Below, piece after piece: positions 2,567 through 29,900 of a stretch of 47,871 bases of DNA. A model generated the notes under the pieces. It was given only the letters and a program-made list of their open reading frames with translations, was not told the DNA's origin and searched no databases. How positions within the stretch are numbered: the stretch's first letter is position 1; every line of letters begins with the position of its first letter. Position numbers and translations under genes: made by a program. Source of the stretch: an uncultured Methanosarcinales archaeon (GTDB lineage Archaea > Nanobdellota > Nanobdellia > Woesearchaeales > GW2011-AR4); contig CAZSIU010000003.1 in NCBI GenBank assembly GCA_964607225.1, forward strand, positions 1-47,871. Reading direction: 5' to 3'.

Positions 2567-5500
2567 GTGATACAACAAAAGCCACATAGAATTGAAGTTT
2601 TGTTGTTTTTGATAGCTTTGGTTATTGTAGGAGCTGGGCTTTATTTCTTAGGACCATCAATAACTGGATTTGTAATTAAAGAATTTAGTTATGAAGATGA
2701 GCCAAATTTAGTTATTACAACAAGCGGCAACTATACATGGCAACTAAAAGATATCGGTGATTTAAGATATGTGAAATTTGATGGAAGCATAACAACTTAT
2801 GGCAAAGCAAGAGTTTATATTGAAGATAATGGCATTAGGTATTTGATATTTGACAGCACAAGAATTGGGGAAGAGAAGGAAGTAAAACAAAGCAATGAAA
2901 CTAGTTTAATAACAGGATTTGCAGTAAAAGAGGATAAAAAAGATGAAGGTAAAAGTGATGAAAACAAAACAGAAAGTGATGAAGAAAAGAAAAAGAAAAA
3001 CCACAAGCCAGATTGGATTGGTCCAGATGAATTTGTTATAAATGGAACTACTGCAGTCAACTTATCAAAATACTTTACAGATGAAGATAATGATGCTTTG
3101 ATTTATTCTGCTTCTGAAGTTGAAGGATTAGAAGTAACAATTAATGGTGAAATTGTAACAATAAAGCCAGCAAAAAGTGAAGATTTCAATACCACAATCA
3201 CATTTACAGCATCTGATGGTGTTGACAGCAAAAATGAAGTAGTTGATTTGATAGTTATTGTTAAGAAAAAGGAAAATAGATCTCCAATTTGGATTTCTAA
3301 TGTTGATACTTTTGTCATTGATGGTACTACTATAATAGATTTATCTCAATACTTTATTGATGAGGACAATGATAGCTTAGCTTATAGTTCTGGTTTGGTA
3401 GATAATATTACAATAACCATAAATAACAATTTAGTAACCTTAGTTCCTGCAGAAGGCTTTGCTGGAAGCGCTTCAACTGTATTCACAGCTTTTGATGGAA
3501 AGAATTTAACAATTAAGAGTGTTACTTTAATAGCTCCAGAAAAAATTATTACAGAGCCAATAAATATAACACCAATCAATCATGCTCCGAAATGGCAAGG
3601 TGTTGATTTATTTATTTTAAATAAAACATTAACAATTGATTTATCACTATATTTTGTAGATGAAGACAATGACACATTAAGCTTTAGTGTTTCTGATGCT
3701 GTTGATGTAAGCGAGAGCATTTCTGTAAATATTTTAACATTAACAACAACATTAGATAATTTCAACACAACAATTACAATAACTGCTTCAGATGGCAATT
3801 TAAGTGCAAGCAAAGAAATTAAATTAATTGTTCCATTAACACCAGCAATAATAACAAAAACAATAACTATTGACTTAGCATATAAGTCTGGCTCTATCTT
3901 TGATGCAAATGACAATGGAGAGGAAAGCATTAATGGGGTTGTTGATTTAACTGTTGAAAACACTAAGTTTAACTGGGATGCTGACAAATCAAGGCTTTGC
4001 ACAAGATGGGAAGTTTACAATGTTGAGGAAGAAAGCTTGACTACTTTCTGCAATGGAAATGCAGATTGCTGTGCATTTATTAATTTATTGCCAACTAAGC
4101 AAAATTGGGATGAGATTTATTATTCAACATTTGGCAAGGATGGAGCTGGCCACAACAATATTGTATCTGCTCAAGTGCTTTATTATGATGTTAATTTAAG
4201 CATTGATAATGTAAAATCTGATGTTTATTATTCTGAATGGGCTAACAAAAGCGTTAAGTTCTATGAGGAAGAGATTGAATTTTTTGATTTCTGCTTAGAG
4301 ACTTGCGCTTTAAGCGGTTTGAATAAAAGCTCTTATTCTTTGATATTTGAAATTGATGATGATGCTGTTTTAAGGATTGACAAGATAAAGTATGCACTAT
4401 TAGTTGATGTCAAAAATAGTGCACCTATATTGTTGCAAAATTTCACAACAATAAATATCAACAAAAATAAAAATACAACAATAAATCTTTCACAATACTT
4501 TTCTGATCCTGATGGAGATATTTTAACTTATAATTATTACAAAACTGACAACATAACAATATTATTTGAGAATGATATTGCAACTATATTGCCAGATAAA
4601 GGAATTGATGGTTTGAGGTTTACTTATTTCTTGGCAAATGATAGCCAGAACTTTATTGTTTCGAATGTTTTTGCCATTAACATCAGCCAAGAAATATTTA
4701 AGCCAAAGGTTTTTGTTGGAAAGCCAGTAAAATGGACAAGCAAAATATTGATTGATGTAAGCAACGTAAGCTCTGTCAACTTGACATTGCCAGAAACAGC
4801 AAGCAATATTACAATTAACATTCTAAACCAAACAATACAAAAAGAATTGCCTGATGAAAAAATAAAAATAATTGAAGATGGCAAAATTAAAGACAAAGAA
4901 TTATTTGAGGTTGAGAAGAAGCTTGAGAAGATTAACAAGAAAATAAGCATTTTGGAAGAGGCAAAATCAAAACAAGCATTGAAAGTTGCAGTTGATGAAG
5001 CAGAATTTAGCTTAAATGAAATTGATGCAAAATTAAATGAATTATACAATAAAAAATCAGAAATAGAATTACAGTTAAATCAGCTATTAAATGCAAATTT
5101 GATAACAGCAAATGTTGTTGCAATAACTGAAACAACAATAAATCAAACACTGCCAGTATTGTTCATTAATGAAAGCTTGACAAGAAATATTGAAATTGAG
5201 ATTTCTTATGAGACAGAAGCGCCTATTGCAATAGAGAATGAGGTTAATGCTTATACAAAACAAATAAAGGTAATTTCTGAAACAAGCTATGAGGATGTGC
5301 TTTCTTATACAACATTGAATGATGTTCCGCAACAAGCTGTTAAATTATATTGGTTAAAAGATGACGCTAAGGAATTAATTACAGATGTTCAGTACATTGA
5401 CACTAATTCCAATAATTTAATTGACAGGATAGAATGGCTCATTCCACATCTTTCTAATCAAACTTATGAGGTTAGCATTACTGTGCTTAATGTCCAAAGC

Positions 5501-14900: not shown

Positions 14901-17900
14901 GAACAAACATGAAGTTATATTTAAACGGAATCTTAGATGCAAGTGTTGCAAGAGTTGGAAGTGGAAAACTAGCAGAAGAAGCTTTTATAGGAAGAATTGA
15001 CCCTGGAATGGGAGAAGCTTTCTTCAACGGCACAATAGATGAAGTTGCTATTTGGAATGTCTCGTTGTCTTCAGCAATAATTGCACAGCATTCAGGTTAT
15101 GGAATTGACAGGAGCATTTATGGGAATAATGCGACTTTGATGTTTAATACAACTGTTAATCAAAGCGGTAAATTTGGAGAGGCTATGCAGTTTGGTGGAA
15201 ATGGTTTCGTTAATGTTACTCAAAGCAGTAATTGGAATTTTAGTACTAGAGATTATGCAATTGAATTTTGGGTTAAATTTAGAGGATTTGTTAATAATGT
15301 GATAATGGTAGACCTTGGAGGAGATACTAATATAGAAACCAGAGTTCAGTATGATAATGTAAATAAAAAATTTGTTGTTTATAGAGGAGGTGATTTAGTT
15401 GTTAATACAGACTGGACAGCTTCGACAGATACATGGTATCATGTTGCTGCTTCTGTAAGCAGTAATAATGTAAGAGGTTACATTGATGGATCGCAAATAG
15501 GAACAGGCAGTAACACCAGACCTGTAAACAACACACAAAACCTGATAATTGGTGCTTTTAGAAATGCAAATGGCAACTTTGTTAACGGCACAATGGACGA
15601 AGTCGCAATCTGGAACAAAACATTATCTTCTGATTTAATAGCACAGCACGCAGGCGCAAAGATTGTTGATTATTCCAATTATGGCAACAATGGAACAAGA
15701 AACTTCAATTCAACAAGCGATTTTGGAAGGAACTTCACTGATGGAAAGTTTTCAAAGGCATTGTTGTTTGATGGAAAGAATGACTGGATAAATGTTACAA
15801 ATGCTTCTGGATTAAATATAATAGGAAATTCTATAACAATGGAAGCATGGGTTTATCCCATAACAATGACCACTAATAAGGCTGGTGTTTTCAGAAAAAA
15901 TAGAGGTGGACCTGATGGTGGTTTCATCTTTGATATAGATACTGATGATGGACTCAGAATGGTTCTAAATGTATCAGGTACTCAAACATTACTAACAACT
16001 GCTGGTATTCCTCAAAATAATGTTTGGAGCCATGTTGCTGGAACTTATGATGGAACAACAATGAGGCTTTACCTAAATGGTGTACAGGTTGCTTCACAGG
16101 CATCAAGTGGCTCTATTGGTGTAAGTGATGAAAACTTAATAATAGGTAATGACCCAACTTTAGTTTCTCCATTCAACGGCACCATTGACGAAGTAGCAAT
16201 CTGGAATGTAAGCTTATCATCAGATGAAATCAGAAAACACTACGAAAAAGGAGTTTTAAAATTAAACTTAAGCTACAGGACAAGCAATGATTCAACTGCA
16301 TTTAGCCAATGGACTCCTGTGCCAAATAACACATTAAGCACAGTTGGGTTTAGCATTGCTGATGACAGCTTAATAGATGTTGTTGAGGGTGTTGTGGTTA
16401 GAAATGAAAAAATAAAAGAAAGCGGATTCCTCAACATGGCCGAGGAGTGTCGAAGTACAGATGAGAGAGGAACAAATAACTATTTAAATGTTTCGATTTT
16501 AAATTCTGATAAGTGCAAAGCCGCGGAAGCTCAACATGGCCGAGCGCCCAGTTCTCAACTGGGTGTACTGTCGAAGTACATGCGGGTTCAAAACTCTCAG
16601 CGTAGAGTTGAGAGTCCCGTCCGCGGCGCATTAAAAACTAACTCTGATAATTCTGAAAATGTTGTTGTGAAGAATGTTAATGAATCCGCTTTCTTTACAT
16701 TCTCGTCCAGCAGAAATTTAAGCTTCCTGGAGGGGAACTGTGACTTTGACATTATCTCTTCCTCTAGTGAGATCAGCAGCATAGTGCAAGGCTGCCTTGA
16801 CATGCTCCTTTGTGAGAGGTGTTATGAAGCTTGTAATTATCTCTTCAACAGGCATGCCTGCTTCCAGCATCTCCAGAACCTGCCAGACCATGATTCTGGT
16901 GCCTTTGAAAGTGGGCTTGCCATGGCAGATTTCGCTGTCCGCAACGATGTATTTGTTGATTTCGATTCTCATGATGTTGATGAGGGTAAAGGGCTATTTA
17001 AAGGTATCGAAAATCAAAGATTTTCGGGACTCCCGAAAATGCAAAGCATTTTCGATAGTATCGGAAATCAGGAAATAATCCCAATTGATGAATTCAAGAA
17101 AATCTGCCCAACACTTGACTGCAATGTAGTTGATTACATAACAGCAAAGAAGAAGATAAAAGACATTAAAGAAGGAGACATTGTTTTATCTTTGGATGAA
17201 AACTCTGGGAAATTAAAGCCTGCAAAAGTCAATGCCTTGCTTGACCATGGTATAAAACCAATATTTGAATTAAAAACAATTTCTGGCAGAGCAATAAACA
17301 CAACTGCTGAGCATCCGTATTTAGTAAAATTATATGATAAAGCTTTATGTGATAAATATGCAAATACTTTCTGGAATAAAATAAATGAAAAAGAAGAAAA
17401 CGGGTTCCATAGCCAAGCTATTGCACCCAACCAAGATCTGATTCCTTCGCGAACAAATACTATAAAACAAAACCTATTTAAATATCTTTCGGTTGAAAAT
17501 GAAGGGACGAAGCTGGGGTCGCATAGCCTGGCCAGTCGAATGCGAGTGAGCTCGTTCAAAAGCGAACTCGCTCACAACTCACTGTCAGACCGAGGATCTG
17601 ATTTCCTTCGCGGATCCGCGGGTTCAAATTCTCTCAGCAATGAGATGAATCTCCCGCCAGATGCATGCGAGTCGCTCGCATGCTCGCGACATCTACCAGC
17701 GTCAAAAATTAGTTCTGAAAATGAATTTGAGCAAAATGGCTATTGCACAAGATGGGTTGAGGCTTCAGAATTAAATGAAGGCATGGAGATTGCTGCGCCT
17801 AGGATAGAAAATGATGTTAATCAAAAAGAAAAATACAATAACAATGGTGTTTCCTTTAATGTTCCTGTTTTAGGGTCTACACTAAAACCAAGAGATTCCA

Positions 17901-20900
17901 ATACCACAACTCCGATTAATACCTTATCTATGATTTCTGATATTAAGACTCGAGTTACATCTTCTTTACCTTTGATTTTTATACGAGCTTCACCTTCGTT
18001 TAATTTAATTATACCTCCGCCTGATTCTACTTCTCTTTCAGCTAAAGCTTTAATTTCAAGTCTATCTGCTAATTCTTTTGGCAGTACTGTTAAAGTTGCG
18101 CCTGTGTCAACTAAAGCTTTGACCTTTTCAGAGTGCTTCCTTTCTAAATCAAATATTTCCGCTTCAACCCATGAATGTCCCATAAACACAAGTAACAATA
18201 ATGATATATTTAAAGATATTGTTTTTGAAAAAATTGCCTCAATTAATGCTTTTGACAAGCAGCACGTATATGACTTAAGCATTGAAGGAACAAAAAACTT
18301 CATTGCAAATGACATTATCGCTCATAATACTGCAAGATACTTCCAGTACAAAGCTGATTTCAACACAACAGACGCAAAATATTCACCGATATTGAATAAT
18401 GTAACAATTAACTATTCTGGAATATTCACTGATGCTTTTGGAAGGTATAACTTTACTATAACTGCAGGCTCAACAGCCAAAACCTATGAAGTCAAGGCAA
18501 ATACAACATTTGAAGGCTTAAATGGACAGCAAAATAATACGTTTAGGGTTACTGCAATTCCTGTAATTAACAGAAACTTTACAATTCCAACATTCCCAAG
18601 ATTTGGACAAAATGTCACTTTTGTTGTTAATGTAACAGATGCGGACAACAATATATTGTATATCAACTTCACCTTGAAGCCAGCAAATGGAAGCATAATT
18701 AACTTAACTAATGGAACAAGAGTTGGAGATTTGCACAATGTTAGCTTTAATTTAACTAACTATGGAACTTGGTTCTGGAACATAAGTTTGACAGATGCAG
18801 ATGGCTTTATTGTAAATATGACAGGAACTGGAGAGATAATTTTGATGCAGATAACTGTTAATCTGAATGCAACTTTAGTTCCTGCCTCATCTCCTATTGC
18901 TGTAAGTGGGCATATTAATTTATCTAATGGAAGCAATGTGAGCAATAATGTAATTAGTATTTTTGTAGATGGAACAGAGCAAATATCACTACATAACTTT
19001 ACTGATGATACTGATACAGATTTCAACGCTGGAACGTTCATTAATGTTTCAGTGCAAGGAACTGGAACTCTTGCTAATTTGACATTAAACAAGAATGAAA
19101 GCGGTGCCTATCCAAATATGACAGGAAACTTCACATCTCAGACATTCAATGCTGGCGGTGTGGCCAATTGGAGCTATATAAGCTGGACAGATGTTGCAAA
19201 CAACAAATATGGGCAAGATTTAGGCGATTCAATAAATGCTTCTATGGTTTTGTATATGAAGTTTAATAATGATACTTTGGAATCTGAGAGGCAGTTGAAT
19301 GTAACTCATAACATTTCTGCTGAAACTAATCTTGTTTTGTATATGCCGTTTGACAGCGCTGCTGCAAGAGAATTAACGCAGAATGCAAGCACAATTTTAT
19401 TATTACATTTCAACAACAGGAGCGATTGGGGTGAAAACAACACTTTCTTTGTTGACAATAGCACTTATAAAAATAATGGAAATTGCACTGGAACAGGCTG
19501 TCCAGCAGTTAATACAACTAATTATAAGTTTGGAGGAGCTGCTTTGACTTTTGATGGCATTAATGATTATGTTAATATTAGCGATAAAGACAGCTTGGAT
19601 GCTGTTTCTGCCTTTAACGGAACAACTGTTGAAGCGTGGGTTTATGTGGCTGGAAGCCCAACTGCAACACACCAAGTTGTGTATAAGAGTAATGCTTATT
19701 TCCTTTCGGTATTATCAGATGATACAGTAAGATTCTTAGTATATGAAGAGCCAGCTGGCAATGGTATATTTGATGCAACAACTACTACAACTATAAACAG
19801 AAATGAATGGCATCACCTTGCAGGAACATTTGATGGCTCTAATGGTAAAGTGTATATTGATGGGGCATTAGCAATAACAGATTCTGTAGACGCTGGAGAA
19901 AGGGTATATCAAAGCAATACATTCTCATTAATGATAGGTTCTGCTAATACCCTTGATGCTTTCTTCAACGGCACAATTGATGAAGTAGCAATATGGAATT
20001 TAAGCTTAAGCTCTGGAGATATTGCAAAACATTCAGGTTATGGAATTGACAGGAGCATTTACGGGAATAATGCGACAGTAATAAATGGAACAACTGTAAA
20101 CTTTACTAGTTTCAAATTTGGTGAAGCCATGACATTCGGCACAGACAATGATTTTGTCAGGATTAAAAACAATTCACTTATAACATTTGGAAATGGGGTG
20201 ACAGATAAGCCTTTCTCAATAGAAGCTTGGGTTAATTATAATCCCTCTACTGCTAGACTTGGTTGTGCAATAGCAGCAAAATCCAGCGAAGGAGGAGAGC
20301 ACGAGTATATTCTTAATAAAGATGGCGATGACAGATTGTTTTTAATCCTATATAACCGTACAGGCAATAGTGCCATCAGACGCATAGCAAATCACAATCT
20401 CACTTCATTATTAGGCAATTGGATTCATGTAGTATCAACATATGATGGAAGCAGCAGCGATACAGGAATAAAACTATATCTAAATGGTGTGCAGCTGTCC
20501 ACAACTAGTGCTAGTACAGCACCATATGTTGCCATGACTGGCAGCAGCGACTTACTGATTGGTAGATGGAGACCAGATTCCTGTAATGTCACAATAGATG
20601 AGTTTGCCATTTGGAATACTACTTTAACCCCAGACAAAATCTCAGAACACGCAGGCGCAAAAATTGTTGATTACTCGCAATACGGCAACAATGGAACAAG
20701 AAACTTTAATTCAACCTCTGACTTTGGAAGGAACTTTACAACAAATGCTAAATTTGGAAAGGCTTTGGTGTTTGATGGGGTTAATGATTATGTGAATGTT
20801 ACTGATTTACCCTCAATGAACGCTTTAACTCTTGAAGTATGGATTAATCCTAGCGATGTTTCAACTAATAATGTTATACTCGGTCATAATTTAGCTGGCA

Positions 20901-23900
20901 ACAATAATGGAGATGTGAATTTTATAGTTAAAACAGACGGGAAACTATATTTCCTTTTGAGTGACGGAACTTCAGAAACAGAAATTAATACAAACACAAT
21001 ATTAAATACAAATACATGGTATTATACTGCTGCAACTTATTCTGGCTCAACAATGACGATTTATCTTAATGGTCTAGCCGAAGTTACAGGCACAATTAGC
21101 AATGCAAATCCTTTTGCTTTTTCTGGTAATCCAAATGTAGGAGGAGATATAGATGGTAAATCAAACTTCTTCAACGGCACCATTGACGAACTCTCAATCT
21201 GGAACGTTTCTATTGAGTCAAGCTTAATTGCACAGCACGCCCAAAGAGGCTTAACAAATCTAAGCATTTATTACTCTGCTTCAAATGACTCAACAACATG
21301 GTCAGATTGGACAAGGGCAACGAATAATACTTTGACAGCAGTTGGATTTTCAATTGCAGATGACAGCTTGGTTGATGTTGTGGATTATGTTGTTGTTAGA
21401 AATGATGTAATTAATGATAATTATTCAACATCAAACAATCTTTTAATGTCGTCAGTTGATAATATATCAATTTCAGATTGTTCTTTGAACCTTTTTTCAT
21501 TGGACCAAATAGCGCAGTCAGAGGCTAATGCCAATGCAAAATATGGCATATCCTTGGAATGCCCAGCCAATAACTTCAAAGCTTTGGATTCAAACTTCTT
21601 AAATTCGGATCTGGGAACAACATCAGTTATTTCAGACAATAAAGCAAATGATATTATAAACTCTAAACCGCCTATGCCGCAAAACTTGCAGATTCTTTGT
21701 TTAAGCTTATATAATTCATCCAGCGCAAAATCAGGAACAATCAATTTAGCTCCTTTAAGATACGCAGATTTAAGCAAATTCCTTGTAAAAGATTCAGGCT
21801 TAAAAAATGAGAATAAAACACTGGCATCAACAACAATCAATCTCATCTGCAATGCTCCAAATTATGGCATGTATCTTTTAGCCAAGTTGTCTCTATATTC
21901 TTCCACAAGTTCTGAGAAGTTATCATCAGTAAGCTTGCTTTTCTTTAATATATCATCAACTGCCTTAAACAAGAGCAATATTTTAAGTTTCTCCTCTACA
22001 GCGCTCCTTAATAATGATTTAGTAGCGGACTTATTAAGCTCGTCCCCAATAATTTCATTAAATCTATCAGGAATTTCAATCCTTAATTCAGCCATTTTAA
22101 TATCACCTAAAGAAACCAATGAAAATGCATATTTAAAGGTTGTGGTTAATAGTAAGGATTTAAAAGAAAATAATGAAAAAGAAGAAAATCAGGCACGTAG
22201 CTTGGATAAAACTTCTGTTTGGCGAACGGAGATTTTAAACGAATTCTTTGTGGATTCGGAAACTACCAAAACTCACACTGTAAGTAGCAATAAACAAGAC
22301 AAATATAAAAATCTTTCGGTTTTAGATTCAGACTATTCAATAATCCCAATTGATGAATTCAAGCAAATTTGCCCAAGCATTGATTGCGGTGTTGTTGATT
22401 ACATAACAACAAAGAAAAAAATCAAGGATGTTAAAGAAGATGATTATGTATTAAGCTTGGATGAGAAAACTGGAAAAATAGTTCCAGCAAAAGTCAATGC
22501 CTTGCTTGACCATGGTATAAAACCAATATTTGAATTAAAAACAATTTCTGGCAGAGCAATAAACACAACTGCTGAGCATCCGTATTTAGTAAAATTATAT
22601 GATAAAGCTTTATGTGATAAATATGCAAATACTTTCTGGAATAGAAACACATTAACGGATATAAAATCAACAATAACGACTTCTGAAAGTATCAAAAATA
22701 ATGAATTTGATGAAAAAGACTATTGCACAAGATGGGTTGAAGTAAGCGAATTAAAAAAAGAGATGGAAATAGCTGTACCTTATTATAAAACAGGCGCTGT
22801 TAAATGGGAGAAGATTGCTTTTATAACTACTTTAGACGAGCAGCATGTCTATGATTTAGCGATTGAAGGCACTCAAAACTTCATTGCAAATGATATAATT
22901 GCGCATAACACTGCAAGATACTTCAGATACCTAGCAAAATTCAACACAAGCAATTCTAATTTAAGCCCAATATTAAATGATGTAACAATTAATTACACAG
23001 GCATATTCACAGATAACTTTGGAAATTACAACTATACATTTAATGCTCCAACTACTGCAACAACTTACACTGTTAAGGTTAATGCAACAAGCAACAACAT
23101 TCCAGGAGAAGCTTTAACTACATTTAGAGTAACTGCAATTCCTGTAATTAACACAAACTTTACAATTCCAACATTCCCAATGTTTAACAGAGATGTAACT
23201 ATTGTTGCAAATGTAACTGATGCAGACAATACAATTGTTTATGTTAACTTTACTTTATATGCTCCAAATGGAAGCATAATTAACTTAACAAATAGCTCAA
23301 GAGTTGGTGACTTGCATAATGCAAGCTTTAATCTAACAAGCTATGGAACTTGGAGATGGAATATTACTGTATTTGACAGTGATGGATTTTTGGTTAATTC
23401 AAGTTCAACAGGAGAAATAATTTTAATGCAGATAACAGAAAACTTCAATGTAACAGCAACTGAAGCTAATGCATCCATCTCTGTTTCTGGGCATGTTAAT
23501 TTAAGCAATGGGACAAATGTAAGTGATTCTTTAATTAGTATTTTCTTTAATGAGGTTTTGATGGGAATAAATAACTTGACACCTGTTGGAAATTATAAGC
23601 AGAAGCAGTTTGTTGATGATAGTGATAGTGATTTCTTGAAAGGAAATTTAAGCATTAATTCAAGGGTTGTTGGAACTGGTGCTGGTGCGAATGTTACAAT
23701 AAACATAAGCTCATTGCAAAACCAAACTCAAAACATACAGCAAAGAGGCATTACTGTAAACGCTTCAACTATTTTATATCTAAGATTTGAAGAGGGGACT
23801 GGGCAGTATGCGAATGACAGCTCTCAATATGGAAATAATGGAACATTTGGAGCAACAACTGCATCTGCAAGCGATGATCCTGTATGGAATTCAAGTGCTA

Positions 23901-26900
23901 AATTTGGAAGTTTTGGAGTGAGTTTCAATACAAATGATTTTGTGAATATTAGTGATAGCAATAGTTTGGATGTCGTAGGCAATTTGAGTATCGAAGCTTG
24001 GATTAAACCAAATTCACTTAGTGCTTCTGGTAGAGCGATGCTAGTCGATAAGGCAGATTACCCAACTGCTAATGATGTTGGTTACACAATATTTTTGGAT
24101 CCTAGTGGCTCTAATTTAATTATTAATGGATTTATTGCTAACTCTGGCGGTTCTTGTCAAATAACTGGAACACAAGCTTTTACTTCAAATGAATGGCATC
24201 ATGTAGCATTTACCTATGATGGTGTAAGAGGCAGAACTTATGTTGATGGACTTACTGACACTGATTCCGCATGTACACAAAGTCCAGCAGCAAATGCTGT
24301 GCATTTAACTGTTGGTATGACTAGTGATGCTAGGAATTTCTACAACGGCACAATAGATGAAGTAGGGATATGGAATATAAGTCTTGATAATGCAACAATC
24401 TTACAACACTACCAACTCGGCTGGGGTTACTTTAATACTTCAAACTTCACAAGCCAAGTCTTTGATGCAAATGCAGTTGTGAACTGGAGCTATATTTCAT
24501 GGTATCAAGGCGCTGATGACAAGGGAATAAGCAATTTATATCAGCAGGATTTGAGCAATGTGATTAATGCTTCAACTGTTCTTTACATGAAGTTCAACAA
24601 TGACACTTTAGAATCAGAGAGGCAGTTGAATGCAACTCATAATATTTCTGCTGAAACAAATCTTGTTTTGTACATGCCGTTTGATTCTGCTAATGCTAGA
24701 GAATTGAAAGAAAATGGAAGCACTGTTTTATTGATGCATTTCAATAATGATACAGGAACTGGGGAGAATGCAAGTTTGTTTTTGAGCAACGCTACATTTA
24801 GTAATGTTACAAATGGAACTTGCAATCTTGCCTCAGGTTTCTGTCCAGTATTCAATAAGTCAAATGCAAGATTAGGAGCAGCTGCTTTAGAGTTTGATGG
24901 AGTGGATGATGTGGTTAATACAACATTCAAACCGAAAAACATGTTAGGAACAAATAAATCATTTAGCATATCCTTATGGACTTTCCTTAAGAGTGCTAAG
25001 AATCAAAACTTTATACATACACCTGTAGGAGATGGAGGAGATAGATTTTATTTTATAGTAGATACTGGTACATACATTATTGGATTAGGAAGTCAATTTA
25101 AAGATACTGGCATAGTGCCAGTAACAGGCTTCTGGCAACATTTGGTTGTCACTTGGAATGGAAGCAGCTCTCTTAAGCTATATGTTGATGGTGCTCTAAG
25201 AAAAGAAGAGTCTTATACTGGAGACGGGCAGCCTGCAAATGGTAATATGGTAATAGGTGCTAGTGCTAGCGATGGTTCTCTTGTAATAAACGGCACCATA
25301 GACGAAGTCGCAATCTGGAACATTTCGCTTTCATCAGGAGACATAGCAAAACATTCTGGTTATGGAATTGACAGGAGCATTTATGGGAATAATGCAACAT
25401 TGATGAATGGAACTATTGTAAACCAAAGCGGTAAGTTTTTTGAGGCAATGCAGTTTGATGGAAAAGGAGATTTTGTTAATTTATCAAATGATAGTGATTT
25501 TAATTTTGGAACAGGAGAGTTTGCAGTTGAATTTTGGATGAAAACAACTGATACTTCTGATAATTCTTTGATTGATAAATCTATTTCTGAATCTCCTTTC
25601 AGTGGATGGTATTTCTACTTTAGGGGTGCAGGTGACATTGATTTTTTCGCAAACAATGATGCCAATACTCTGGATGGAAAAATTAAAACAAATGATGGTA
25701 ACTGGCATCATATAACTGCAACAAGAAGGGGTACTACTAGTTATTTATATGTTGATGCTGTATTAGATGTAAGTGCAGCTCATTCTTCAAATGATAATAC
25801 TGCCGCGGCTCTATTAATAGGTACACAACGTAGCTCTGCTCTTTTCTTCAACGGCACAATGGACGAAGTAGCAATCTGGAACAAATCCTTATCTTCTGAT
25901 TTAATAGCACAGCACGCAGGCGCAAAAATAATTGATTATTCGCAATACGGCAATAATGGAACGAGGAATTTCAATTCATCTTCAGACTTTGGAAGGAATT
26001 TCACAGACGGAAAGTTTTCAAAGGCGTTGTTGTTTGATGCTATAAATGACTATGTTAATGTAAGTGATAGTAGTAGTTTAGATATTAATAATAGTCTTAC
26101 TATTGAAGCATGGGTTAAATTTGATGGACTACCTAATGATAATATGAATATAGTTTCAAAAGGTGATACAAGTATTGCCAATTATAATTATAATATTAGG
26201 ACCAACCTAGCACAATTAGATTATGCGTGGAAATGTTGTGGAACTACTGATAATGTATATAGAACAACAAGTAGTGTCCTTACAACAGGTGTATGGACAC
26301 ATATTGCTGCAACGCATGTAAGTGGGAACACACCAAAAATCTATATAAATGGAATTGAACAATCAGCTAGTATTACAAGTGGTGCTGCTACTACCCCTTT
26401 AAATTACAGCGCTGATCATCTATATATTGGTAGTAGAGGAAGGAATGAAGCTAGTGGTGCTTTCGTGAACGGCACCATTGACGAAGTAGCAATCTGGAAC
26501 ATTTCATTATCAGAATCAGAAATAAGAAAACATTATGAAAAAGGAGTTTTGAAGTTAAACTTAAGCTACAGAACAAGCAATGATAGCACTACATTTAGCC
26601 AATGGTATGGTGCGGGAAATAACACTTTAAGCACTGTTGGGTTGTGTGTTGCTGAAGACAGCTTGATAACATTGGCAAATGGTTCAAAGAAAAAGATAAA
26701 AGAAATTCAAGAAGGGGAGTATGTGCAATCTCTTGATGAAAAGACTGGTAAAATTGTTACAAATAAAGTAAATGCTTTGTTGGATATGGGCAATAAGACA
26801 GTATACCAATTAACAACGGAATCTGGAAGAGCTATAAACACGACAAAAGAGCATCCTTATTTGATTAGAATTTACAAAAATTCGAATTCATCGGGAAGAA

Positions 26901-29900
26901 GTTTAATAACTTTGCCCTCAATTTCTTCAGGAGAATGCTGCTTTAGCAATTTAGAGATTGAGCGTTTCTGTGCTTCCAAGTCTTTTGCACGGATTCTTAA
27001 TAGCCAAATTCCAAAGTGCTTAGAAGAAGCAAATTGCTCATCTGTAAAATGTTTGTCACGTGTAATCAGTAATCTTTGCTCTGATAAAGTCAGTTCAAAT
27101 ACTTCTCCATTCTCAATACCCTTAGGAGATAATTTAACGTCATGTCCTAATTTGGATAAGAAAGAAAATAAGCCTCTATGCACATTTTCATCAAATAAAA
27201 ACTTCATTTTAGGCAGGGACAAGTTCGAAACTTCTTTCTGTGAGTTGAGCAGCAAACTGCAAAGCTGCTTTGATGTGCTTTTTAATCAAGGAAGGGTATG
27301 CTTCAAGGATTTCTTTTGCAGTAGCTCCATCTTCGAGCATTTCCAGAACTATCGAAACCATGATTCTTGTACCTTTGAAAGTAGGCTGTCCATGGCAAAT
27401 ATTGGAATCAACAACGATATAATCATTAATTTCGATTCTCATGAAATAAATAATGATAGTTCAGTATTTAAATATTACGAAAATAATAGTGCTTCTCTGC
27501 TTGAGCTAAAAGACGAGCTCATAGAAATTAATAATGTTACAGCTAAATGGGTTAGAGTAAATCAGTTAAAAAAGGGAATGGAAATTGCTGTTCCTGATTA
27601 TGAATCAAATACAATAAAGTGGGAGAAAATAGTATCAATTAATGTTTTAGAGCCACAGCACGTCTATGACTTAAGCATTGAAGGTACTAAAAACTTCATT
27701 GCAAATGACATTATTGCGCACAATACAGGAAGATACTTCCAGTACAAAGCAGACTTCAATACAACTGATGCAAGATATTCTCCAATTCTAAATAATGTAA
27801 CAATTAACTATTCTGGCATATTTACAGATGCTTTTGGCAACTATAATTATACTTTTAGAGCTCCATCAAGTGGTTCTTATTCAATTAAAGTTAATGCAAC
27901 TTATGCAAATATTTCAGGAGAAGCATTTACAACATTGCAAATAGACACATCTGCTCCAAGGATTAACTTTACAAGGCCAACTCCTGCAAATAACTCAAGA
28001 GCAGTTGGAAATGCACAAAAAATAAACATAAGCATTACAGATAATGCTGTAAGCAGATGCACATTGCAAGTTCATAATGGAACCGACAATGCAACAAATT
28101 TCACAATGGAAATAAGAGGCTTAAACTGTAATGTAACTATAACAACACTTGATGGCTACAACTATACTTTAAAGGCTTATGCAACAGACACTGCTGGAAA
28201 TGAGAATTCAACTGAAAACCATACATTTAGAGAAAACACAAAACCAGAAATTCCAACTTTAAATGCTCCTGCAAACAACTCAAGATTATTAACAACAAGT
28301 GTTATATTAAATTACACTACAAATGACAATGATACAGACAATGTAAATTACATTGTTTACTTTGACACAAGCACAAACCCAACAACAATTGTATATAGAA
28401 GCACTTCAAAAACATTTGTTGTTTCAACAACAAGAGGCACAACTTACTTTTGGAAAGTGCAAGCAGATGATACTTTTGAGAACTCAAGCAACTCAACAAT
28501 AAGGCAATTCACTATCAACTCATTACCTCCAACACCATTAATAATAACCCCAAATTTAACAGGAATACAGCTTAGAGGCTCTCAAACTTATAATGTAAGC
28601 TGGGTTAATTCAACAAGCGATGCAGAAGGTGACCAAGTAAATATCAGCTTATATTATTCAACAGATTCTGGACTTACATATCCTAATTTTATAACTAGCA
28701 ATCTAACCAATAATGGCACATATGGTTGGCTAGTGCCAAGCATTGACAGCAACAAAGCAAGAATAAAAGCAATTGCAACTGATAGCTATGAAACTAGTGA
28801 AGATACTAGCGATAATGATTTCACTATTGACAGCACTGCTCCTACAATAACTCTAGACAATCCGCCAAATGGAAGCAGCTTTAATAATGGAACCTTCATT
28901 AACTTAACAATAACAGATAATTTAGTTGGTGGAATAAATGTAAGCTGGAACAACAATAGCTATGTTGGTGCTCCAAACAGGACTGACTTCAATGGAACTT
29001 ATGACATCAACACAACTGATTGGCAAGTTGGAGAGGTTAATATTAGCGTTTATGCAAATGACAGTGTAGGCAACTTAGCAACTGCTTACTTTAGGTTTAG
29101 TATAACAGATGTACAACCAGTTGTCACCTTCAATGCTCCATCTCCAAATCAAGTAATAAGAGCTACTTTTAGAGTAAATGTAAGCTCAACTTCACAACTT
29201 GATGATGCTGCTTTTGTTAATTTCACCTATGAAGGCGCAACACAAAACTTTACAATGACTCAAGCTGGAAATGATTATTTCTATGACTTTGATACAACAA
29301 CTGTTGCAGATAGGCAAAGAAGGCTTTCTGTTTATGGAAACAATTCTGCTGGAACTGTTGTAAGAGCTGATATATTTGCAACTATTGACAATACTGCACC
29401 TGCAATAAGGCTAGACTCTCCAGCCAATGACACTTGGAAGAATTCAAGCGTTACATTTGTTTATGTACCGAATGATGTAACAACAAGCATTGTAAATTGC
29501 TCATTGATAATTAATGGAACAATAAACAGAACCAATAGCAGTATTTCAGAAGGGATAGAGAACTTATTCAGCAATGTTGTCTTTGGAGACGGCATCTATA
29601 GATGGGATGTTAATTGCACCGACACAATTGGCAATAATGGCAGCAATGGAACTGCAAGGCTATTAAAAATTGATACAATAATACCAACAATTACGTTGCT
29701 AGACCCACCAAATGACACATCAATAAGAGGCAACAAAACAATTAACTTTTCTGTAACAGACTCTGGAGGAGCTGGTATTGCTAATCTAACTTGGAGCAGC
29801 AATTACTTATTGGACCAGACATCATTTATTGGGACTTATGGCATCAACACAAGTGAATTCCCAGAAGGAAAAACAAACATTACAATAGTTGCAAACGATT

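Follow-up and report, generated by a model that had tools for sequence, protein, structure and literature searches.

A tRNA gene and its upstream partial copy

The window analysed here, the 47,871 nucleotides (nt) of contig CAZSIU010000003.1 (assembly GCA_964607225.1, deposited as an uncultured Methanosarcinales archaeon and placed in the Woesearchaeales by GTDB), contains a transfer RNA (tRNA) gene of class II shape on the plus strand (16520-16628). Upstream of it lies a partial copy of the same tRNA which, on the minus strand, constitutes the body of a predicted antisense RNA gene (16422-16459). The tRNA gene has the acceptor strands GCCGCGG/CCGCGGC, the discriminator base G73 and, as read from the sequence, G1-C72, A8 and A9. 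Its D arm reads GCTC-AACATGGCC-GAGC, with G18 and G19 present. A 5-bp anticodon stem (CCCAG/CTGGG) closes the 7-nt loop TTCTCAA, which has U33, the anticodon CUC (CTC at 16554-16556) and A37. The variable arm (16564-16580) is 17 nt long, and the T arm is formed by the stem GCGGG/CCCGT and the loop TTCAAAT. All the elements of a canonical cloverleaf are therefore present (7-bp acceptor stem, D arm, anticodon arm and T arm), with the exception of the canonical U8/A14 combination: position 8 is A in the group to which the window tRNA belongs, with A14 in the window and G14 in the orthologue from genome G005. The anticodon is not of the serine type (NGA or GCU), and the A73 of canonical archaeal tRNA-Leu is replaced by G73. 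The score of this tRNA with covariance model R1 was 111.9 bits, and compensatory changes in the anticodon stem, the variable arm and the intron hairpin of the orthologues from genomes G005 and G001 indicate that structural selection acts on it.

A 29-nt stretch stands where a 7-nt T loop is expected in this gene. The bulge-helix-bulge motif of archaeal introns consists of two 3-nt bulges on opposite strands with a 4-bp helix between them. Such a motif, with the central helix UUCA/UGAG and the bulges AAA and AGU, delimits a 22-nt intron (16593-16614, plus strand) between tRNA positions 59 and 60, whose excision leaves a 7-nt T loop. After in silico removal of 16593-16614, ARAGORN called an 88-nt tRNA with anticodon ctc; on the unmodified window it found 0 tRNA genes. 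Rfam at gathering thresholds gave 0 matches in the window, the tRNA model (RF00005) scoring the window tRNA at 13.7 bits against a cut-off of 29. The standard tools thus miss this tRNA because of its T-loop intron. A T-loop insert was found in 60/60 non-serine members of the tRNA family described below, and its 3′ part is conserved among family members (TGA[GA]A[GT]T-like).

T-loop introns and multiple tRNA introns are common in the genome of the window (G000; 1.06 Mb, 33% GC, 70%-complete), in which ARAGORN detected 12 tRNAs and Rfam 14, with more recovered by a custom intron-tolerant scan. Examples with an intron at 59/60 or with several introns are located at C15:429-576, C17:7707-7916, C18:3200-3375, C21:7409-7525 and C157:2459-2579 of this genome. 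The gene on C157 was called tRNA-Leu(gag) only once two inserts had been taken out. C71 was assigned to tRNA-Leu(UAG) and C17 to tRNA-Leu(CAA) by eye only, the deletion scan of C71 being ambiguous.

The upstream copy repeats three parts of the tRNA in the same sense: nucleotides 4-8, the D arm and, of the variable arm, the 3′ half. The anticodon arm is omitted. Its D segment (16430-16444) is identical to tRNA nucleotides 16530-16544 at 15/15 positions, its variable-arm segment (16448-16459) is identical to 16569-16580 at 12/12 positions, and the sequence GCGGA of tRNA positions 4-8 is found at 16422-16426. Altogether, copy and tRNA show 35 matches and 2 mismatches over 37 aligned positions. 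When the upstream region was aligned to the tRNA, the score was 47.3 (z 6.6), a value reached by 0/200 shuffles; the similarity exceeds chance. These data confirm the complementarity to the D loop and variable arm that had been described in a previous sequence-only reading of this DNA. That reading also took the anticodon arm and both acceptor strands to be absent from the copy, which holds for the anticodon arm and not for the 5′ acceptor strand, partly kept as GCGGA. Past the copy, the minus strand terminates in TTTCTTTTATTT, within an oligo-T tract (16410-16421, A-rich on the plus strand) that is the predicted terminator. The gene is predicted to yield a transcript of about 45-50 nt from the minus strand, extending from ~16459 to the T tract.

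Several other identities for this element were considered. Neither box C (RUGAUGA) nor box D (CUGA) is found in the minus strand between 16459 and 16410, and the best snoRNA-type Rfam match, DdR5, scored 17.3 bits (E 8.2), the cut-off being 70; a C/D box guide RNA was rejected for its lack of boxes. A bulge-helix-bulge formed in trans by the copy/tRNA duplex was also rejected, as the mismatches give no offset 3-nt bulges. The reading of the window anticodon loop as an inverted Leu GAG loop (its reverse complement) was dropped, since a valid-looking reverse complement results from every loop that has U33 and A37. Leader removal without RNase P was rejected too: the RNase P RNA is present in 4/5 genomes searched, in three of them over the cut-off, and was not found in the 70%-complete G000.

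Promoter orientation and complementarity to the tRNA

The predicted promoter of the antisense RNA is formed by an archaeal TATA box (16481-16489) and a B recognition element (BRE, 16490-16496) on the minus strand. Read on the plus strand, the region shows TATTTAAAT followed by GTTTCG, approximately 22 nt to the right of the copy; on the minus strand it reads CGAAAC-ATTTAAATA, which is the BRE/TATA consensus of the ordinary tRNA genes of G000. The promoter consensus of this genome is CGAAAC followed by (T)ATTTAAATA. The polarity of the motif was determined at 87 genome-wide sites of G000 in which TATA is followed by TTTC[GT]. At 40 of these 87 sites a start codon on the opposite strand was found 22-26 nt past the TATA box, away from the TTTCG side. 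On the TTTCG side of the same 87 sites there was no start-codon peak, with a maximum of 3 at any offset. TATA/TTTCG motifs thus point away from TTTCG genome-wide, and therefore the window promoter is predicted to fire leftwards with a start near 16458-16459, in agreement with the minus-strand BRE/TATA and the start near 16458 proposed before. The start codons located 22-26 nt from TATA at 40/87 sites also suggest that the mRNAs of G000 are mostly leaderless. The same TATA box (16481-16489) may be shared with the tRNA, whose 5′ end is 30 nt away.

A similar arrangement was observed in related loci. The TATA box lies 20-25 nt from the 3′ edge of the copy in 23/26 loci, and its distance to the tRNA is variable (6-37 nt); 7 loci have 15 nt or less, a gap that is too short for a tRNA promoter. 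A run of at least four A residues is present directly to the left of the copy in 26/27 related loci. As a separate observation, repeated hairpins of the type GGCGAGG...CCGAGC occur just 3′ of consensus promoters and beside some tRNA genes of G000 (C23:~6300, C68, C111, C35:2546-2650 and C21:7300-7408).

Comparison of the orthologues from G000, G005 and G001 revealed differences at D-loop and variable-arm sites, some of which show as many as three states, and each copy tracks its own tRNA; a search for covarying pairs in other genomes had been proposed in the sequence-only reading. The own tRNA was the single best partner of the copy in 21/27 loci, with 1 tie. In the group of loci whose copy includes the anticodon arm, changes of the anticodon (GAG, CAG, GAC, GAU, UAG) are mirrored in the copy.

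The mismatches between copy and tRNA are strongly asymmetric. The combination of G in the tRNA with A in the copy was found at 96/573 sites vs 18/536 for C in the tRNA with T in the copy (p 3e-14), and T in the tRNA with C in the copy at 56/453 sites vs 5/438 for A with G (p 2e-12). When the 27 loci of the genus were considered alone, the corresponding values were 47/292 vs 12/278 and 27/228 vs 4/236. This bias was seen in loops and stems alike, and the tRNA bases affected sit in Watson-Crick pairs in 24/25 and 11/13 cases; because they are almost always paired in this way, the wobble tolerance of the tRNA itself is not the explanation. The mismatch spectrum fits G·U-tolerant pairing between the tRNA and a transcript of the minus strand. 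One mismatch is conserved: opposite position 10 of the tRNA, G is changed to C in 11/27 copies. The predicted heterodimer of the RNA with tRNA nucleotides 1-62 showed a gain of -30.6 kcal/mol, as compared with a shuffle mean of -7.3 (sd 3.0); the predicted gain of the duplex against the folded pre-tRNA was still -14.7 kcal/mol, and the z against shuffles was -7.8. Promoter spacing, terminator, covariation and G·U-biased mismatches thus lend support to the earlier suggestion that the minus strand may encode a purpose-built anti-tRNA RNA.

Family distribution, tRNA identity and intein setting

A DNA search that covered 61 related genomes identified the same tRNA plus copy architecture in G005 and G001, in both cases at a locus that stands free. 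A covariance model built on 8 such tRNAs gave matches in 41/43 genomes of the genus and in 92/121 genomes sampled from the order. This last tally takes in two unpublished genomes, G142 and G161, on neither of which the other results rest. We examined 77 distinct matches with G73, leaving locus L031 out of the copy counts as its upstream sequence was too short, and scored a copy as present when no shuffle among 200 matched the upstream partial copy. In the sampled genus and order loci, such a copy precedes 56/59 of the non-serine G73 tRNAs with a long arm and 0/17 of the G73 tRNAs with a serine anticodon (Fisher p 3e-14, treating related loci as independent). The absence of upstream complementary segments from homologous tRNA-like genes had been set beforehand as an outcome contrary to the proposal, and the 56/59 count goes in the opposite direction. 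The copy criterion was reached by 0/8 canonical A73 tRNA-Leu loci, and among 24 candidate tRNAs of G000 only that of the window has a copy. By these counts, the tRNA/copy pairing extends across the tRNA family of an archaeal order and is not peculiar to the window.

The anticodons of the 59 non-serine members correspond to Leu (39), Ile (8), Phe (5), Val (2) and Asp/Glu (3). A canonical A73 tRNA-Leu(GAG) coexists with the family in 5/5 relatives tested with ARAGORN and in G000 (C157); the family is therefore an extra tRNA set, of which G001 carries 9 non-serine members. Long-arm G73 tRNAs with an antisense copy are found with Ile anticodons at L023/L071, L051, L075, L081, L082, L086, L088 and L092, with Phe anticodons at L070, L072, L073 and L087, and with Val anticodons at L050 and L096; the Ile, Phe and Val types are spread over many families of the order. 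An arrangement unlike the antisense-copy architecture was observed at L097 (G099:C24, upstream of 3240-3323), where a repeated 18-nt motif and a copy of the first 14 nt of the gene lie upstream of a tRNA-Ser(UGA).

Regarding the identity of these tRNAs, G73 is present in 77/77 family rows and G1-C72 in 76/77, the variable region has a median length of 17 nt, and G30-C40 is found in 47/60 non-serine members vs 16/17 true serine tRNAs. One paralogue group has acceptor and T stems in common with tRNA-Ser(UGA). U33 is kept in 54/56 members, and position 37 is a purine in 55/56; these canonical anticodon loops argue for a use in decoding. According to the parts consulted of PMC9976931, serine identity resides in the long arm and G73, the anticodon being ignored, and G1-C72 and G30-C40 are among the serine identity elements; for the Haloferax leucyl-tRNA synthetase (LeuRS), G73 is an anti-determinant. 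By these rules the family would insert serine at Leu, Ile, Phe and Val codons, and at Glu codons in the case of the window tRNA, for which a mistranslating activity is plausible.

Bacterial allo-tRNAs are among the closest known systems. As described in the consulted portions of PMC5389517 and PMC7609411, these have a long arm, G73 or U73 and diverse non-serine anticodons including GUC, insert serine in Escherichia coli and occur near toxin-antitoxin genes, and two variants killed E. coli (PMC5389517). Judged against those portions, the window tRNA (17-nt variable arm, G73) shares with them the long arm, the discriminator base and an anticodon mismatched to its serine-like body, as well as the proximity of toxin-antitoxin genes and mobile DNA. 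GUC, one of the commonest anticodons of allo-tRNAs with an 8/4 acceptor branch, is also that of the G001 orthologue of the window tRNA, and, like allo-tRNAs, suspected there to be missense suppressors or regulatory RNAs, the window tRNA may be either. The acceptor branch of the window tRNA can be drawn with A8-U65 (8/4) or with G49·U65 (7/5), and the A/G/T combination permitting the 8/4 drawing occurs in 4/56 loci, the remainder being 7/5. The archaeal family differs from the allo-tRNAs of those accounts in its host domain, its mostly 7/5 structure, its spliceable T-loop intron, its anticodons, which are nearly all NAN, and the predicted cognate antisense RNA gene that accompanies each tRNA gene. 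The word "antisense" occurs 0 times in the covered text of PMC5389517 or PMC7609411.

The unit formed by the tRNA and antisense genes is located within an intein. The host open reading frame (ORF, 8927-32461) encodes 7844 amino acids with LamG repeats and contains three inteins at the same site of repeat modules: intein 1 (16352-18328, plus strand, 659 residues; Pfam Intein_splicing, E 5.5e-20), which carries the unit, intein 2 (21350-22909) and intein 3 (26645-27724). In all three, the sense frame is free of stops. The sense frame through the small RNA gene, the promoter, the tRNA and the minus-strand DUF433 and retropepsin-like genes has 0 stops, as compared with 15-94 in the other five frames. 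To the right of the tRNA, a minus-strand remnant of 13 codons of a DUF5615 gene, encoding a PIN-like toxin, was identified at 16687-16725 (tblastn against the intact copy of intein 3: 8/13 identical, E 0.003), followed by a minus-strand DUF433 gene at 16718-16972 (Pfam PF04255, E 3.4e-19) with its own BRE/TATA near 16993-17010. DUF433 is the usual antitoxin-type partner of DUF5615. The DUF5615 gene is truncated after 13 codons by the unit, which, from this sequence arrangement, replaces the toxin gene within intein 1. Protein-coding genes antisense to the host ORF are the DUF433 gene, the DUF5615 remnant and the retropepsin-like gene in intein 1, a PIN_2 gene in intein 2, and a DUF5615 plus a DUF433-like gene in intein 3; synonymous resampling of four antisense genes gave probabilities of no sense-frame stop of 0.013, 0.18, 0.15 and 0.11.

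The unit is flanked by an inverted repeat formed by 16415-16429, at the 3′ end of the antisense gene, and 16682-16696 (plus strand), at the right edge of the unit and at the junction with the truncated toxin gene. The repeat is perfect over 15 nt and 91% identical over 23 nt. It was not seen at the orthologous G001 and G005 loci, and a transposon with terminal inverted repeats was rejected, the 15-nt repeat being limited to this window. Contigs from two runs (X1, X2) tile 16177-16766 with 0 differences, ruling out an assembly chimera. A contig of run X4 over 16512-16756 represents a strain variant of the tRNA with variable-arm indels at 16567, 16570 and 16577. A joint of 16275 to 18335 has short sides of 24 and 43 letters; it may derive from module 1, which is intein-free, and was therefore not counted as an intein-free allele.

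Units of tRNA and antisense copy were also found in the same intein family elsewhere, at L032 (G020:C57, 876-987 and 1501-1610), L039 (G003:C57, 1501-1609) and L046 (G004:C109, 1501-1612). In G020, G003 and G004 the units lie on the strand of the host ORF, whose frame is open, with 0 stops over 3110 and 3060 nt and a frame of 897 amino acids. From these sequences, inteins of this lineage appear to carry cargo, with the RNA pair sharing its slot with protein toxin-antitoxin genes.

A candidate antisense repressor and its alternatives

The interpretation that we favour, with a probability of roughly one in two, is that the divergent RNA genes would constitute a tRNA and its dedicated antisense repressor, the tRNA being allo-tRNA-like and possibly mis-decoding. 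The rightward gene would encode an archaeal counterpart of the allo-tRNAs, with an intron, a long variable arm, G73 and the anticodon CUC, which is neither serine nor leucine. From its consensus BRE/TATA, the leftward gene would produce an oligo-U-ended RNA that is reverse-complementary to the three tRNA parts present in the copy. Made a few dozen nt from the tRNA gene, this small RNA would base-pair with the tRNA, nascent or still unfolded, over its 5′ two-thirds and block the formation of the acceptor stem, D arm and variable arm, which would prevent processing, charging and use of the tRNA. It would thus act as a sequence-matched repressor of a tRNA with mismatched body and anticodon. The sequence features, their conservation, the covariation and a substitution pattern such as RNA-RNA pairing would leave are shown by the data; we infer that cells produce the small RNA, that it pairs with its target in vivo to inhibitory effect, and that the tRNA would mis-decode.

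This proposal resembles known systems in part. As in type I toxin-antitoxin systems and with antisense small RNAs encoded in cis or in trans, a small RNA running from promoter to terminator lies beside its target and shows extended complementarity to it (35 of the 37 aligned positions); unlike in type I systems, the target is a tRNA and not the mRNA of a toxic peptide, no small-protein toxin gene is involved, and the two genes diverge without overlap. Archaeal C/D box guides are likewise small and complementary to a single tRNA over two stretches of 12-15 nt. The predicted RNA differs from them in that its stretches abut and the boxes C, D, C′ and D′ are absent; they would find no space, since it begins at the edge of the complementarity. 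Nematode V-arm tRNAs (nev-tRNAs) combine class II bodies with anticodons of other amino acids; they are eukaryotic and, to our knowledge, have no reported antisense partner, unlike the archaeal family. In the literature searched, which included the consulted parts of PMC5389517, PMC7609411 and PMC3388794, we found no tRNA gene with a dedicated antisense partner, no archaeal allo-tRNA-like family and no antisense genes inside inteins.

Several observations weigh against the proposed repressor or against its mistranslating target. The mismatch bias could result from transcription-associated deamination of the non-template strand, an origin that would itself require transcription of the minus strand but no selection on pairing, and the covariation of the copy could derive from short-patch gene conversion. 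The shared ancestry of the loci means that the p-values overstate the support. No copy was found at 3/59 non-serine members. As for the cargo, 56/59 family anticodons have A35, which would fit a leucine-like cargo; charged in this way, most members would read their codons correctly, and a repressor would be unnecessary. The window tRNA itself has A30-U40 instead of the serine element G30-C40. Finally, in each of the 5 genomes tested a single seryl-tRNA synthetase (SerRS) exceeds the cut-off and one LeuRS-like ORF scores best, which argues against simple mistranslation; a second LeuRS or SerRS serving the family was rejected, the weaker matches being presumably other class I synthetases.

The sequence-only reading had gone further and presented the pair as a candidate all-RNA toxin-antitoxin module, consistent with its protein toxin-antitoxin neighbours. 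As an addiction module, a stable tRNA toxin would mistranslate abundant codons and an unstable antisense antitoxin would restrain it, so that loss of the DNA, such as the intein in which it resides, would kill or slow the cell. The position of the unit in the DUF5615 toxin slot beside the DUF433 partner, the protein toxin-antitoxin genes that fill the same slot in the sister inteins and the tRNA units in the same intein family of three other genomes are in line with this idea. So are the multi-copy nature of the family (9 non-serine members in G001), the shifts of anticodon between orthologues and, from the consulted portion of PMC5389517, the proximity of bacterial allo-tRNAs to toxin-antitoxin systems and the lethality of two variants to E. 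coli. However, most units are found among housekeeping genes, with 2 PIN domains in 126 flanking ORFs (36 other loci) and 2 inteins, and the order-wide conservation looks like the vertical inheritance of a useful function. The argument from the neighbours therefore lacks generality, the toxin-antitoxin pair as it was formulated is not supported, and we regard addiction as unlikely.

The same order-wide conservation, together with the T-loop introns of 60/60 non-serine members and the mismatch opposite tRNA position 10 conserved in 11/27 copies, could also be accommodated if the antisense RNA were a helper that either holds the 5′ two-thirds of a pre-tRNA whose long arm and T-loop intron make it hard to fold, pending synthesis of the 3′ part, or exposes a nucleotide for modification. 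Such a function is doubtful: T-loop introns without a copy occur in 10/17 serine tRNAs and in many other tRNAs of G000, there are no C/D or H/ACA boxes and DdR5 stays at 17.3 bits against its cut-off of 70, and the pairing would occupy the acceptor strand, which must be free in the mature tRNA. It seems quite improbable, in turn, that the copy is a decaying partial duplicate maintained by conversion or templated repair, with an incidental promoter, or that it acts in cis, in the sense orientation, within the pre-tRNA leader. Copy and tRNA are indeed direct repeats 60-100 nt apart, the retained tRNA parts vary among paralogue groups, and in one group an additional TATA box, located 32-44 nt 5′ of the copy, would place the sense copy in the leader. 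Nevertheless, the internal deletion is kept in three species, the covarying segments of 12-15 nt are very short for conversion tracts, the similarity comes in patches and is not uniform, the promoter keeps its spacing to the copy and not to the tRNA, and strand-asymmetric mismatches are unexpected from conversion alone; the group of the window has no plus-strand promoter upstream that would produce such a leader.

A broader version of the antisense-repressor proposal can be put forward tentatively, as a rather unlikely extension of it. The units would be order-wide all-RNA modules in which tRNAs of serine identity, as latent mistranslators or toxins, are each silenced by their own co-evolving antisense RNA, and which would also travel as intein cargo beside protein toxin-antitoxin genes. 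It is also conceivable, with the same reservation, that the anticodons of such modules match abundant hydrophobic codons (acidic in the window) and that the host inteins keep the giant frame open.

The detection of the window tRNA only after removal of its intron illustrates a wider point, as a large share of the tRNA genes of these small-genome groundwater archaea escapes standard tRNA finders. If the antisense RNA is real, this would be the first case found of tRNA genes that each have a dedicated, co-evolving anti-tRNA gene. If the proposal is true, allo-tRNA-like tRNAs with mismatched body and anticodon would extend to the Archaea, the antisense partner would offer an explanation for the tolerance of cells to such tRNAs, and regulated or selfish mistranslation would become directly testable.

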